DNA of 64,000 bases from an uncultured delta proteobacterium (GCA_963826785.1 CAWGYD010000005.1:32001-96000), one strand, 5' to 3'; shown: positions 54,557-61,948, counted from the stretch's first letter. Notes: generated by a model not told the origin, from the sequence alone. Program-made: numbers and translations.

Positions 54557-56822
54557 TCAGAGGGTGTTTCCGATGCCACCCAACCCGAGCAGATTGACCA
54601 TCAGCCCGAACCGGCGGTCGTCTTCTTTGTCTTCCACAAAGACGTCCACTCCCCAGCATTGTGCGGTATACAGCAGGCCGATCCCTTTTTCAATATCGAT
54701 GCCGTCTTCCAGGTTCCGTTCATATTTCCCGTACAGCCGGATGCGGCGGGTGATCAACTTGCTGAAGTTGAGGTAAATGGACTGACTGACGTCTTTTTCA
54801 TACCGGTGCTCCACCAGGAGGTAATCTCCGGTAAGAAAGGCCATGCGGCCGTAGATATTATGGGTGATCAGGTCCCCCTGATCATGGCTCCACTGCGCAT
54901 CGGCATGAAGGGTTAACAGATGAGCAGGGGTGACGTCAAGCTCGAAATACAGCGGGCGGAAGGGGTCGGTGCCCTCCGGATCATCCGGTTTGAAATCATA
55001 GGGTTGTTCGACCCGAATGCGGCATAACTGGTCATACTGATAAATGGGCGCGCCGCCGATTGCCGGCCGTTCAGGCAACGGCGCCAGCGTTCTGGCGGTA
55101 AAGAGCTGGGTCAGTGAGAAGGTGAGCAGGTTTAGGCTTTCCAGCCGGTCGGTTTCATCAAAAAACGGAAATTCGGATTGATCTGTTTTGGGAACATAGA
55201 AATATGATATTTGTGGAATCAGGGTATGCTTGATTTTATCGATGGACCATCGGTCGACCTCATATATTCCGGCCATTTCCGTGGAGAGGTCCGCCCCCAG
55301 GTCGTAAGTTTCCCGGTGTTGTAAGGCGGCATCATCCATGTCCTGTGAGTCGGTGTCGTCTTGATCCACATACCAGGCGGTTTGGCGGAAACCCGCCGAG
55401 GGTTCGAATGCGACGAATCGTTCTAAAGGACAGGGGAAGATACAGCCGGGGGTAGATATCAGTCCGCTGTCCATCGAGGCCGTCTTTTCGAAAGAAATTC
55501 GTATAGCCCGATTCCAGTTCGTAAAAGACCGGAGACCGGCCGATGGGCTGCTTTAAGGTGGCAAATGAAATCCGCGGCAGGCGCTGGAGCGTATCGTCGG
55601 GCAGGTCCTGAGTCCGATCGATCACGTTGTCATACCAGATCACATCGGCATCGAAGCTGGCCGTGGACCATGTCCGGTTGATGGACGCGCTGTTCTGGCG
55701 GACCGGATCATTTTCATCATCGAGATCCCGGCCGTACTCGGATACAAAATAATCCCGGGTGGCGTTATAACCGGTATATCCGCTGTCGAATTCCCGCAGG
55801 TAATCCTGATCGCTGACGATATCGATGTCCATCTTGAGCTGTGCTTCAAGGGGCAGTTCCTGATTGGCCTTGGCCCTGAACCAGTACCGGTCCGAATTGG
55901 TGCGAAGAACCTTGTCCTGCGGGTACCCCCAGTTATCACTGGCATCACCGATGCCGTCGTCGATTTTCTCGTCATCTAAATAGTCCGCCATCAGGGTGCC
56001 CAATGATCCGGGCGAAAGCGCATAGCGGTATTCGGCGCCGTATTTCAGGCCCCGCGCCTCGAGATAGTGGAGGTAGAAAGTGGCATCGGTGCTGCGGTTG
56101 ATGGCCCAGAAATACGGCTGTATGTATTCGGCGCCATTTCGGTTCGAATATCCCAATTGAGGCGGCAACAGGCCGGACTGCCGCCTCTGCTTGACCGGAA
56201 ACAGAAAATAAGGAACATAGGCGACGGGCAGCTGTTTGGCCCATAGGGTGGCATGTTTCAGGGTGCCGTAGGACTCCAGGGTGACATCGAGGTCCCTGCC
56301 GGTGATTTCCCAGGCCGGGTGATCCCCATCGCAGGTGGTCAGGCTTCCCCGATCGATGGTGTAGCTTTGTTTTCCGGTTTTGCGGATCTCGTTTCCACGG
56401 ATATAGAAATGTTTGCTTTCCACAAAAATGGTGCCATCATAGATCACGCCGGTGGCGGTATCCAGGTTGATTTCGACCCGGTCGCCAGTGAGAAAATCTT
56501 TGCCCACACTCAGCCGGACATTTTTTTCCGCTACGGCTTCCATCGTGTCCCGGTTGAATCGGACCACATCGGCGGCAAGGGTTTTATCGCTTTGGGTGAT
56601 AATCACGTTGCCGGTAGCGGTGAATATGTTCGTATCCTGGTCATAGGCGACCCGGTCTGCCGTCAGCCGCCAGGGCATGCCTGCCGTCGAAGGGGCGGGA
56701 GGGGCGGTATCGGTCGGGGTGGATGCCGGGCATGATCCCGGCTGAACCAGAAAGATCAGCAATGCGGCAATAAAAAAGATGCACCGGGGTAAACAATATA
56801 TTGGGAGATGCCTCAGATGCAT
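54557..56822 (-). CDS. lptD: LPS-assembly protein LptD, frameshifted near 55424
   Basis: OstA-like N-terminus (LTADRV..ATGNV), TTCD..PAW, RQSGLL, PYFWAI and barrel C-terminus YTAQCWG. Confidence 0.85.
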
Positions 56823-57011
56823 TCGATTTTGATCCGTCCTCTGGGGATTGCCTGAAACAGAGCGCCCGCCGCTTCCGGCGGGCTGCGGGAAGAGATGCCC
56901 TGTTTTCCCGGTTTGGGGAAGAATACCTTGATGAACCCATAAATTTCCAGTATAAAATCGTCCAACACCCAAAAAGTCAAACGAAAATCGTCCTTCAAGG
57001 GGAAGGCAGAA

Positions 57012-57996: not shown

Positions 57997-58641
57997 ATGT
58001 TTATCTCATTTGAAGGGGGAGAAGGCTCCGGGAAAACCACCCAGATCCGTGCGGTCGCCGACCGGCTGGCCGAATCGGGGCATGATTGCGTGGTGACCAA
58101 GGAACCGGGGGGGACCGTCATCGGTGAAAAAATACGGGCCATCCTTTTGAGTCCCGGAACCGGTGCGCTCGATCCCGTGACCGAACTTTTGCTGTATGCC
58201 GCGGACCGGAATCAGCACGTCCGGGAAATGATCCAGCCAATGCTCGCGGCGGGAAAGATCGTCCTGTGCGACCGCTTTCTCGATTCCACCCGCGTTTACC
58301 AGGGATTTGCCCGGGGCCTTGACAAAAAGCTCATTGACCGTTTAAACGATCTGGTCCTGGGCCTGTTGCGGCCGGATCTCACCTTTTTGCTCGATATTAA
58401 ACCCGAGGAAGGGCTCAAACGGGTCTGGCGCCAGGTGGAAAGCGGGGGGCGCCCGGTGGATGAGACCCGGTTTGAAAATGAGCGGCTCTTGTTTCACCAA
58501 AAGGTTAGAAACGGATACCTGGAACTGTCTTTTCAGGAACCGGACCGTTTCGTGGTCATCGATGCCGCCGGCAGTCCCGACCAGGTCTTCAATGCGATCT
58601 GGGAAAAGATCGCCTCCTTTTTAACCGATTCGAGCGCGTGA
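57997..58641 (+). CDS. tmk: Thymidylate kinase
   Basis: FISFEGGEGSGKTT, EPGGT, LCDRF.DS..YQG and PDLT. Confidence 0.95.
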   Translation: MFISFEGGEGSGKTTQIRAVADRLAESGHDCVVTKEPGGTVIGEKIRAILLSPGTGALDPVTELLLYAADRNQHVREMIQPMLAAGKIVLCDRFLDSTRVYQGFARGLDKKLIDRLNDLVLGLLRPDLTFLLDIKPEEGLKRVWRQVESGGRPVDETRFENERLLFHQKVRNGYLELSFQEPDRFVVIDAAGSPDQVFNAIWEKIASFLTDSSA

Positions 58642-58702: not shown

Positions 58703-60967
58703 ATGGCAGACTCAATCCTCGATACCATCGGCAATACGCCCATGGTGGAAATCCGGCGGCTGAACCCCAATCCGGATGTGAAAATACTGGCAAAGCTGGA
58801 GTATTTCAATCCCGGCGGGTCTATCAAGGACCGGCCGGCCCTGTATATGATCGAAGATGGCGAAAGATCCGGCCGGCTCACGAAAGACAAGATCGTCATC
58901 GAGGCCACCAGCGGCAATACCGGCATCGGCCTGGCACTGATCTGTTCCGTGAAAGGGTACCGGCTCCTGTTGGCCATGTCCGAGGCGGCCAGCATCGAGC
59001 GGCGCAAGATCCTCATCGCCCGGGGCGCCGAAATTCTGCTCACCCCCGGCCATCTGGGAACCGACGGGGCCATCGAGGAAGTCTATCGTCTGGTCCGTGA
59101 AAATCCGGACACCTATTTCATGTCGGACCAGTACAACAACCCGGCCAACTGGAAAGCGCATTACCACGGCACCGCCGGGGAAATCATCGCCCAGACCGGC
59201 GGAAAGGTGGATGCGATTGTCGCCACCATGGGAACCACCGGCACAGTGATGGGCCTGGCCAAGCGCTTTTCGGAATATGACCCTAAAGTGAAAATCATCG
59301 GGGTAGAGCCCTACCTGGGCCATAAGCTCCAGGGCCTGAAAAATCTCAAGGAAGCCTATTGCCCTGAGATATTTCAAAAAAATCTGCTAAGTGCCAAGGT
59401 CAATATCGATGATGAAGAGGCCTTTGAGATGACCCGGCGCCTTGGGCGGGAGGAGGGGCTTTTCGTCGGCATGAGCAGCGGTGCGGCCATGGTGATTGCC
59501 GCGCAGGAGGCCCGGAACATGACCTCGGGAACCATCGTGGTGATCTTCCCGGACAACGGGGAGAGGTATTTGAGCACCCCGCTGTTTTCGGTGAAAAAGA
59601 AGGTCGACATCCGGCTGTTTAACTCCATGAGCCGCAAAAAAGAGCCACTTGAGCCGATCCAGCCGGGGCGGGTCTCCATTTATTCCTGCGGCCCCACCGC
59701 GGATTCCCGGATGCACCTGGGCGAGTGCCGGCGCTTTGTGTTTTCGGATCTGCTGTCCCGGTACCTGGGCTACCGCGGGTATGCCGTCAACCACATCATG
59801 AACATCACCGATTACGACGACAAAACCATCCTCGGATCCGAGCGGGCCGGTAAGGCACTGGCAGAATTTACCCAGGAGTACATCGATCTTTTCAAGGCCG
59901 ACCTCGAAGCACTCCGGATCAAGCCTGCGGACCAGTATCCCCGGGCCAGCGAACACATCAATGACATGGTCGACCTGGCCAAGCAGCTGACGGCCAGAGG
60001 ATCGGCATACGAGAAGCTGCGCTCCCTCTATTTTTCCATTGCGTCATTTCCGGAATACGGCAGGCTTTCAGGGATCGACCTGGAGAAAATCAAGCTGGGG
60101 GCCACCGTGGATCTGGACGAATACGAAAAAAACAACCCCCGGGATTTCACCCTGTTCAAGCGGGCCAAGCTGTCGGAGCTGAAAAGGGGCATCTACGTCA
60201 AGACCGAATGGGGAAATGTCCGCCCCTCGTGGCATATCCAGTGTGCCGCCATGGCCATGAAATATCTCGGCGAGCGCTACGATATTCATACCAGCAGCCG
60301 TGATCTGATTTTTCCGCACCATGAAAACGAACTGGCCATTGCAAAGGCGGTCTCGGGAAAATCCATGGTGAAATACTGGATCCATTGCGAACAGGTCCAG
60401 GTGGAAAACAGCAACGGGCTGCCGGAGATCGGAGAGGTGTTCGGTGACGGTATCACGCCAAGAGAAATCCGCTTCTGGATGATTTCAGGGCATTACCGTA
60501 AGCCGATCACGTTTTCCAAGCAGCGGCTGGTGCAGGCCCGCAGTGCACTGAAGCGCCTGGACACCTGTATTCAAGCATTGATGAAGGTGAAGGGCGGCAA
60601 AGGCTGCCCGGAATCTGATCAGCTGGCCTACGACATCAAGCAGGGGTTCATCAACGCCATGGATGACGACCTGAATCTTCCCCAGGCCATGGCCGTCATC
60701 TATAAAAAGATCAAGGAGATCAATACGCTGGTCAGCGAGGGCCAATTCAGCGAAGATGACGCCCGGAAGGTAATCGCCGCATTTGAAAATATCGACCAGG
60801 TACTTAACATATTTGATTTTGAGCCCGGCGAAGCCGACCCTCGGGCCCGGTCCCTGCGTGAAGAAAGGCAGGCGGCCCGTAAAGCGAAGGATTTTGACCG
60901 GGCCGATGCCATACGGGCGGAACTCGAGGCCCTTGGGATCGAGGTCCATGACGATAAATTGCCTTAA
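58703..60967 (+). CDS. Cysteine synthase (CysK/CysM) fused to a divergent cysteinyl-tRNA synthetase-like domain
   Basis: NPGGSIKDR, EATSGNTG, MGTTGT and DNGERYLST, then YSCGPT, NITD.DDK, RPSWHIQC, FPHHENE, HYR, MDDDLN and ADAIR. Confidence 0.9.
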   Translation: MADSILDTIGNTPMVEIRRLNPNPDVKILAKLEYFNPGGSIKDRPALYMIEDGERSGRLTKDKIVIEATSGNTGIGLALICSVKGYRLLLAMSEAASIERRKILIARGAEILLTPGHLGTDGAIEEVYRLVRENPDTYFMSDQYNNPANWKAHYHGTAGEIIAQTGGKVDAIVATMGTTGTVMGLAKRFSEYDPKVKIIGVEPYLGHKLQGLKNLKEAYCPEIFQKNLLSAKVNIDDEEAFEMTRRLGREEGLFVGMSSGAAMVIAAQEARNMTSGTIVVIFPDNGERYLSTPLFSVKKKVDIRLFNSMSRKKEPLEPIQPGRVSIYSCGPTADSRMHLGECRRFVFSDLLSRYLGYRGYAVNHIMNITDYDDKTILGSERAGKALAEFTQEYIDLFKADLEALRIKPADQYPRASEHINDMVDLAKQLTARGSAYEKLRSLYFSIASFPEYGRLSGIDLEKIKLGATVDLDEYEKNNPRDFTLFKRAKLSELKRGIYVKTEWGNVRPSWHIQCAAMAMKYLGERYDIHTSSRDLIFPHHENELAIAKAVSGKSMVKYWIHCEQVQVENSNGLPEIGEVFGDGITPREIRFWMISGHYRKPITFSKQRLVQARSALKRLDTCIQALMKVKGGKGCPESDQLAYDIKQGFINAMDDDLNLPQAMAVIYKKIKEINTLVSEGQFSEDDARKVIAAFENIDQVLNIFDFEPGEADPRARSLREERQAARKAKDFDRADAIRAELEALGIEVHDDKLP

Positions 60968-61012: not shown

Positions 61013-61948
61013 ATGAAACCCGCATACTTCCCATTTTCGTATATTCCGGAACCGGTTGCCGCCGCCATCCATGAATTTTTCGGCGGCGTGGTGGTATACC
61101 AGCCCAATGACCGATGCATTCCCGCATTGGCACGGCAGTTGGCCGATGCCGGCAAAGTAGAAATCCGGGTTCCGGTCACGGGTGACGAGGATCGATTATC
61201 CGCAAAGTTGGCCGAATACCATCAGTGGAGCAACATCCATGGAAAGAGTGCCGCCATGCTGGCCGCCCGGCCCGGAAAAGGGACCTATCCATCCGATTTT
61301 TCATCAAACATCAGTTCCGAGATTCTGGGTGAATCCGCTCAGGCGGATGAAAAAGCCGATCCCCTTTTTTCCGCGCGGTTGTTTTTGCAGACGGCCCAGC
61401 AGTTCGATCAGGATCAGGACGATATCGATCGGAAACTGGCCCATGCCGAGCGGTCCCGGAAAAATCTGCTGTCCGGTCTCGACGGACGGCCCGCCGACGC
61501 ATCCCTGGACCTGCCGTTTCCCGAGGAGGATGCCGGGGCGCTGATGACGCTCTCCCGGCTTTCCGCGTGGTGCCGGCTGGCAAATGAAGATGCCGCCATG
61601 CCGTTGGTTCTGGTCACCTCCAGCCGGGAGGTGGTGCGCCACATACAGGAAAAGTTTTCCGAAAAGCTCCGCACCATCGATGTTTTGTCATCGGGCGCAG
61701 GGGGAAATCTTGCCGAGGCAGTGAATAAAGCGCTTTTGGACCTGACGCAAATTCCGCGGGACGCCAAAACCCTTGAATTCCCCGCTTTTTCGGCAAACGT
61801 GAATGAAAACATTCAAATTCAGATGCTTATCATAGAGGACACATCCCCGGACCGATTCTGCCGCCTGTTCATCGATCCGGCGCAGCATCTTCCCGCACCC
61901 AAGGGGCCCAGTGCCCATATGGTGGTCTTCCTATTTTCGATAAAATGA
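61013..61948 (+). CDS. Hypothetical protein
   Basis: 311-aa ORF filling the gap on the same strand; no family recognised. Confidence 0.6.
   Translation: MKPAYFPFSYIPEPVAAAIHEFFGGVVVYQPNDRCIPALARQLADAGKVEIRVPVTGDEDRLSAKLAEYHQWSNIHGKSAAMLAARPGKGTYPSDFSSNISSEILGESAQADEKADPLFSARLFLQTAQQFDQDQDDIDRKLAHAERSRKNLLSGLDGRPADASLDLPFPEEDAGALMTLSRLSAWCRLANEDAAMPLVLVTSSREVVRHIQEKFSEKLRTIDVLSSGAGGNLAEAVNKALLDLTQIPRDAKTLEFPAFSANVNENIQIQMLIIEDTSPDRFCRLFIDPAQHLPAPKGPSAHMVVFLFSIK

Follow-up and report, generated by a model that had tools for sequence, protein, structure and literature searches.

A cysteine synthase fused to a degenerate cysteinyl-tRNA synthetase domain in Desulfobacterota: a putative tRNA-Cys-gated enzyme

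A stretch of 64,000 nucleotides from an uncultured delta proteobacterium (hereafter, the window) contains a single open frame (58703..60967, + strand; 754 aa, ATG start) in which a CysM-type, PLP-dependent synthase is followed by a domain resembling cysteinyl-tRNA synthetase (CysRS). As this second domain has lost its ATP motifs, the question arises what it does behind an enzyme that makes cysteine. A sequence-only reading of the locus had offered two answers: either new cysteine is channelled onto tRNA by a non-canonical activation, or an altered domain acts as a sensor of cysteine or tRNA. We favour a form of the second, namely a cysteine synthase that works without CysE and has a tail which would bind tRNA-Cys and gate the activity according to the charge of this tRNA, replacing the feedback through CysE. 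We give this reading, including the regulation that we infer, a probability of about 0.5.

Two halves of one chain

Pfam assigns PALP to residues 6-284 of the fusion, tRNA-synt_1e to 317-613, DALR_2 to 649-704 and CysS_C to 713-752. Among the NCBIfam profiles, the fusion scores above the cut-off for TIGR00435 (cysS; 347.9 bits, cut-off 340) and just under it for TIGR01136 (cysKM; 342.7 bits, cut-off 344.15), while its scores for the CysM-subtype profile TIGR01138 (326.9 bits) and the MshC-type profile TIGR03447 (179.6 bits) lie below the respective cut-offs of 394.2 and 485.1. An AlphaFold2 model of the whole protein had a mean pLDDT of 91.0 and a pTM of 0.70, and the modelled halves resemble solved cysteine synthases and CysRS structures, respectively (CysRS half: TMt 0.90 against 8qhp_A and 0.83 against 1u0b_B). 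According to the model, the structure matches and Pfam, all parts of a class I CysRS are present, i.e., the Rossmann fold, the CP domain, the helical bundle and a C-terminal anticodon domain; together with an alignment to E. coli CysRS, this half was assigned to residues 298-754 (59594..60964, +).

The synthase half (residues 1-297; 58703..59593, +) was delimited using TIGR01136 and an alignment of 86 fusions with E. coli CysK and CysM. Its catalytic set is intact, comprising the PLP lysine K42 in the SIKDR motif (starting at residue 40), the TSGNT loop, which presumably binds a free carboxylate, Q143, GTTGT and S258; all catalytic motifs are likewise intact across the aligned fusions. The sequence-only reading of this half as an intact CysK/M-type enzyme therefore holds and can be refined, since the substrate loop is CysM-like and not CysK-like: a basic residue and an insertion are found at E. 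coli positions 210-216, and Lys213 (codon 59339..59341, +) aligns with Arg210 of E. coli CysM and is Lys in 86/86 fusions. The available part of PMC9547175 describes this basic residue and insertion as a feature of the CysM subtype. Judged from motif conservation, the N-terminal half would almost certainly be an active PLP-dependent beta-replacement enzyme.

In the alignment of the other half with E. coli CysRS, HIGH reads HLGE (residues 338-341; H40 replaced by E) and is followed by R343-R344, in a segment that begins with C329 (E. coli C28) of the CGPT motif (59687..59734, +). GRPGWHIEC reads VRPSWHIQC (starting at residue 506; E208 replaced by Q), and the cysteine/zinc pocket is formed by W510, H511, C514, H529, H539, H540 and E543 (60218..60331, +), with TSS (530-532) in place of GGG (G225-G227) and PHHENE starting at residue 538. 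Behind YWIH (residue 558), a loop without any lysine (residues 562-572; 60386..60418, +) replaces K266-S270, i.e., KMSKS. The zinc ligands, which we take to be C28, C209, H234 and E238 of E. coli CysRS, are all kept (C329, C514, H539, E543), as is W510. Both the retained ligands and the four motif changes had been named from the sequence alone, and each was borne out at the place given. What can be added is that the anticodon domain at the C-terminus is intact, with R722, R726, D735, R738 and D750 (60866..60952, +) corresponding to E. coli R423, R427, D436, R439 and D451. We assume that 423 and 451 are further anticodon-contact positions besides the published ones. CysRS residues 427, 432, 436 and 439 contact the anticodon according to excerpts of PMC13449415.

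The motifs by which class I enzymes are recognised, HIGH and KMSKS, are in contact with the adenylate, as stated in PMC7373986 and PMC9736012, and nothing conserved takes the place of either motif in the fusion. Since three ATP elements are lost and a canonical cysS is present in the same genome, ATP-dependent activation of cysteine by the C-terminal half is very improbable in this organism. This second gene, the search for which had been suggested by the sequence-only reading, was found at G000:C10:101740-103170 behind an ispF-like gene; its product has HIGH, GRPGWHIEC, GGG and KMSKS and scores 586.8 bits with TIGR00435. In total, a translated search of the host genome (completeness 87.8%) detected three CysRS-like genes. 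The genome further contains one tRNA-Cys (ARAGORN), SerA and SerC, and a separate cysE-cysK operon on contig C8, so the fusion is not its only cysteine route.

The third CysRS paralogue (424 aa; L002:7192-8466, contig C6) is a mirror image of the fusion, as HIGN and KMSKS are kept and the anticodon domain is absent; thus, an anticodon domain can be shed. In its pocket, C209 is replaced by D, H206 by N and E238 by N or I. Five relatives with 57-63% identity were detected among the family members, with neighbours not shared with the C6 copy. The protein may ligate a different amino acid at the expense of ATP. Elsewhere in this genome, a 96-base tRNA-Trp call (L004:4359-4454, contig C1) with mismatched stems and no CCA is probably false, and a MetX-like gene lies in three pieces (G000:C5:260298-261246).

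Retention and loss across the family

All 120 best homologues listed contain both Pfam domains, and their taxon labels are mostly Desulfobacterales or Thermodesulfobacteriota. The fused domain is present in 31/31 genomes of the order, and the fusion was found in 59 of 151 genomes drawn across the phylum; one further copy in the phylum sample (G095) is cut by a contig end and was set aside. The motif K[MIL][SA]KS occurs in none of the 120 best homologues, 80 GTDB loci, 30 order-level and 56 phylum-level fusions (four overlapping sets). The loop in its place is free in sequence and length among the relatives, most of which have E or Q at the position of E. coli H40. Thus, aligning the protein with E. 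coli CysRS and with homologous fusions, as had been advised, confirmed the motif loss for the whole family, and this family-wide absence rules out an assembly deletion at the KMSKS position.

Mean pairwise identities were compared between 26 canonical and 29 fused domains of the same genomes, after removal of one fusion with a frameshift and of three canonical rows that belong to another type. The identity is 95.2% in canonical versus 45.4% in fused domains for HIGH, and 86.1% versus 29.2% for the KMSKS loop, whereas the CP domain (74.7% versus 80.2%), the helical domain (45.2% versus 49.1%) and the anticodon domain (50.7% versus 47.1%) differ little. Judged by these values, the ATP motifs are relaxed family-wide and the CP and anticodon domains are not. 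A decaying pseudogene is ruled out by the conservation of the latter two domains, which is as in canonical CysRS. We conclude that the fusions form a real, widespread and misannotated protein family.

Some members deserve separate mention. In P0175 (858 aa), one chain contains a tandem of two CysRS-like units. Frame breaks were observed in the C-terminal part of the fusions of G019 (L035/L150) and G042 (L200), and in the canonical cysS of G066 (L215/L224). In three members of the order (G021, G028 and G029), the canonical cysS (L140, L141 and L142) is of another type than in their kin.

Is the domain retained for cysteine or for tRNA? In the 55 whole phylum fusions (of 56), R423, D436, R439 and D451 are kept in every case, and position 427 is occupied by R (50) or K (5). 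Among the zinc ligands, C28 is kept in 46 of the 56 phylum fusions, C209 in 50, H234 in 55 and E238 in 42. These numbers bear on a feedback similar to that of HisZ, in which free cysteine in the zinc pocket would inhibit the synthase and tRNA binding would be secondary. Such a feedback would suit the genomes without CysE, which lack the usual cysteine feedback, and all four zinc ligands together with W510 are kept in the present protein and in most of the order; moreover, excerpts of PMC7373986 present HisZ as a synthetase paralogue acting in histidine synthesis. Nevertheless, we consider it unlikely, as zinc ligands (H234 apart) are lost in 6 to 14 of the 56 phylum fusions while the anticodon residues stay, and 23% of 30 close relatives have V in place of E238. 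In P0125 (labelled Desulfovibrio ferrophilus), C28, C209 and E238 are all missing but the anticodon set is kept, and zinc ligands are also lost in P0130 and P0131. Because the anticodon residues are constant where zinc ligands are lost, the constant part is the tRNA surface and not the cysteine pocket. Of the two answers given by the sequence-only reading, the altered sensor is thus the one strengthened, by the canonical cysS, the family-wide relaxation of the ATP motifs and the retained anticodon residues, and it would be narrowed to tRNA-Cys instead of cysteine. The channelling answer finds no support for this protein, since nothing conserved replaces HIGH or KMSKS.

An active bifunctional enzyme, which makes cysteine and charges tRNA-Cys by an unusual use of ATP, is nonetheless compatible with some of the data. 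The TIGR00435 score exceeds its cut-off, and 17 of the 56 phylum fusions keep KMS[KR], four of them with near-canonical HLGN-type and KMSRS-type motifs, in which residual activity is possible. In three draft genomes, no canonical cysS was found (G006, 77% complete; G019, 91%; G175, 95%). In addition, P0124 (768 aa, labelled as a Nanoarchaeota MAG) is a cysteine synthase-CysRS fusion with every canonical motif. However, an unrooted tree (FastTree, 96 rows) sets the 38 degenerate fusions, joined by some relatives that are unfused or partial, behind a branch with a support of 99, apart from P0124 and apart from the canonical CysRS of the hosts. In the present protein, H40 is E, the KMSKS loop is without lysine or any conserved substitute, and the host has its canonical cysS. 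A second, canonical-type CysRS match was also obtained in 29/31 genomes of the order, a second CysRS-like match in 58 of the 59 phylum fusion genomes, and each of five single-contig genomes has one fusion and one separate cysS. Taken together, we regard a charging activity of this protein as very improbable. P0124 itself is a candidate for a true channelling enzyme. The same tree does not support an origin of the fused domain as a duplicate of the host's own cysS, as the two lie apart.

Cysteine supply and the proposed gate

If the tail does not charge tRNA, its role may be sought in the pathway which it is attached to. The alignment of K213 with R210 of CysM makes O-phosphoserine a likely substrate, and in the accessible text of PMC3805590, R210 helps to select O-phosphoserine in some organisms. 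However, in E. coli, CysM works with O-acetylserine despite its Arg210, which binds thiosulfate according to PMC9547175, and P0262, a 50% identical relative of the N-terminal half, is fused to a hexapeptide acetyltransferase-like domain, which counts against O-phosphoserine; K213 is, therefore, no proof. The fusion may nevertheless prefer O-phosphoserine to O-acetylserine, and the N-terminal half would probably convert O-phosphoserine from SerA/SerC and sulfide to cysteine. In another relative of this half, P0142 (436 aa, 58% identical), a free serine kinase is the best PDB match of the N-terminal domain (E 3.6e-07); with this kinase-like domain before a CysM-type synthase, it possibly forms a route from serine to cysteine in one protein.

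The gene content of the phylum sample was inspected with respect to this route. Of the 59 fusion genomes, 30 (from 16 families) have no CysK/M match besides the fusion itself. A match to the host's CysE was obtained in 0/30 of these fusion-only genomes versus 27/29 of those with a second synthase, and in 69/91 of the fusion-free genomes, counts that do not form a statistical test and are overstated in such a cross-table because kin are not independent. A cysE HMM gave no CysE-level match in the 30 fusion-only genomes (one match at 2.6e-33, four at 2e-17 or weaker); in G152, it also revealed a cysE whose parts are divided between contig ends. MetX was considered as a source of acetylserine in the fusion-only genomes and rejected, as a MetX-like match was present in 2/30. 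SerA was detected in 28/30. These genomes could instead rely on cysteine import or on another route. The control point of the usual pathway is the inhibition of CysE by cysteine, according to excerpts of PMC9547175. With a synthase fed from phosphoserine without the CysE step, a dead domain binding tRNA-Cys would most simply be its regulator.

Accordingly worded as a mechanism, our proposal is that the C-terminal half, judged by its conservation, would bind tRNA-Cys by the anticodon and the acceptor end, which we hold with good confidence, this binding being the job for which a non-catalytic CysRS-derived domain would be selected. The charge of the bound tRNA-Cys would then control the synthase allosterically, a step to which we assign slightly better than even odds. 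In the simplest version, uncharged tRNA-Cys signals shortage and turns synthesis on, and cysteine or Cys-tRNA on the zinc may serve as the off signal where the zinc site survives. Such gating would supply the feedback that CysE provides in the usual pathway.

A bound tRNA might also serve a reaction, which would be the bolder proposal. The C-terminal half could hold aminoacyl-tRNA-Cys, e.g., with a mischarged or sulfur-modified residue, for repair, conversion or deacylation without ATP. R42, H206, H234, the CP domain and the anticodon residues are kept across the phylum fusions, and synthase and tRNA site always lie in one chain; further, tRNA-dependent cysteine synthesis is known from SepRS/SepCysS, as described in parts of PMC8762117 and PMC5424206. 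We still rate this as rather unlikely. A SepRS match was obtained in 0/5 genomes tested, the pocket residues differ among lineages, and the TSGNT loop is intact, which binds a free carboxylate that a tRNA ester does not have. Excerpts of PMC7373986 add that CysRS needs no editing against serine.

Fusion-specific residues on both halves suggest a conserved contact. E125 and Y128 of the synthase half are present in 86/86 fusions, and Y128 in 0/9 unfused relatives; D639, Q640 and D644 of the CysRS-like half, surface-type residues like E125 and Y128, are present in 30/30 fusions, and the fusion-specific R344 in 55 of the 56 phylum fusions. When residues 301-706 were docked on a dimer formed by residues 2-296, the score was 0.56 versus 0.00 for the best control, with at least 93% of the contacts shared between runs and a partner pLDDT of at least 86. 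In the benchmark, the mark was reached by 116/157 solved and 2/215 mismatched pairs, but at a score of 0.60 or less by 18/157 solved pairs and both passing mismatches. The complex is weakly supported, its score being of a size at which predictions fail more often than they hold. The docking result, like all conservation data, would also fit a scaffold without regulation, which tethers tRNA-Cys or the canonical CysRS near new cysteine and so raises the local supply, or which stabilises the enzyme. On the other hand, a catalytically dead domain that holds tRNA would be in competition with CysRS, and unfused synthases of 52-59% identity in other genomes show that folding does not depend on the tail. 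We judge a mere scaffold to be decidedly improbable.

Other regulatory clues were sought around the gene. By eye, no shared tRNA-like mRNA leader was found in 103 upstream regions, several of which abut the tmk stop, and autoregulation via such a leader was rejected. The upstream neighbour, dTMP kinase (tmk; 57997..58641, +), shows no functional link and lies beside the fusion in 71/80 loci of the order and 1/28 distant loci; a 311-aa gene of no known family directly downstream (61013..61948, +) is kept in 73/80 and 0/28, respectively, and an atlas search with it gave nothing usable. As a clue to the role of the fusion, the neighbourhood was discarded, being conserved within the order only and consisting of housekeeping genes. 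Further upstream, a gene that we take to be LptD-like (54557-56972, -) is split into two frames (546 and 305 aa); its relatives cluster with one long frame, and a frameshift is possible.

Whether the fusion is already annotated in relatives had been left open by the sequence-only reading. It is present in databases, but under the plain names cysteine--tRNA ligase or cysteine synthase, and the atlas fusion clusters bear automatic CysRS names only. Full-text literature searches returned no description of it, with subscription papers and supplements outside their scope, so that a mention in a table may be missed. The fusion is also unmentioned in the accessible portions of PMC7609411, PMC5388404, PMC8762117, PMC5424206, PMC2922099, PMC3431258, PMC3805590, PMC9506716, PMC13449415, PMC9736012, PMC7373986 and PMC9547175. 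Many records of the phylum called cysteine--tRNA ligase probably cannot charge tRNA and would need correction.

Based on these data, the analysis suggests that cysteine output in many sulfate reducers may be switched by the share of empty tRNA-Cys. A stronger statement, to which we give somewhat less than an even chance, would be that a bacterial metabolic enzyme contains a dead class I synthetase, which reads the anticodon and 3' end of the cognate tRNA and switches the enzyme directly by the charge of this tRNA, and that this enzyme is the main cysteine route in about one fifth of the sampled Desulfobacterota. If true, this would explain how cysteine is made and limited in sulfide producers lacking serine acetyltransferase, and the few known cases in which a synthetase paralogue regulates metabolism would gain a class I, anticodon-reading member. 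The natural series of fusions from intact to fully degenerate makes testing simple, and by database label, the carriers include cultured species such as Desulfosalsimonas propionicica and Desulfovibrio ferrophilus.

Comparison with known systems

With class I CysRS (E. coli CysS, PDB 1U0B; TIGR00435), the fusion shares the fold, the CP domain, the anticodon residues and, in the present protein, the zinc pocket. Unlike these enzymes, it has no HIGH, GGG or KMSKS and sits behind a synthase; wherever the assemblies permit a judgement, it is accompanied by a canonical cysS. CysM-type enzymes and O-phosphoserine sulfhydrylases (E. coli CysM, M. tuberculosis CysM 3DKI), among which a T. vaginalis enzyme is reportedly also grouped, have the same PLP fold, the basic residue at CysM R210 and a short loop before the substrate determinant; they differ from the fusion with its 457-aa CysRS-like tail, which moreover has no sulfur-carrier gene among its conserved neighbours. 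SepRS/SepCysS likewise joins O-phosphoserine, a PLP enzyme and tRNA-Cys (parts of PMC8762117 and PMC5424206), but the folds are different, and the SepRS partner had no match in any of the five genomes tested.

Among the CysRS paralogues, MshC keeps HIGH and KMSKS and uses ATP, according to excerpts of PMC9736012, whereas the fusion is without these motifs for Cys-AMP formation. CysRS* of the selC* system is a CysRS paralogue from the same order, Desulfobacterales, and is active without an anticodon domain (available text of PMC7609411); the fusion, in which this domain is present, is its mirror image. Thus, the fusion belongs neither to the active CysRS family nor to CysRS* or MshC, both of which keep catalysis.

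Parallels to the proposed role are found in systems with no homology to the fusion. HisZ is a class II protein and a separate subunit that is not known to carry an anticodon domain. As a paralogue of HisRS, it is tied to the synthesis of its own amino acid, as the accessible part of PMC7373986 describes. The fusion, in contrast, is of class I, forms one chain with the enzyme and keeps the anticodon domain. The sensing domain of GCN2 is HisRS-like. Excerpts of PMC7373986 describe GCN2 as the eukaryotic sensor of deacylated tRNA. While GCN2 is a protein kinase reading many tRNAs, the fusion would be a metabolic enzyme reading one, and the proposed logic is alike in both: uncharged tRNA is recognised by a domain resembling a synthetase, through which the attached enzyme is switched.
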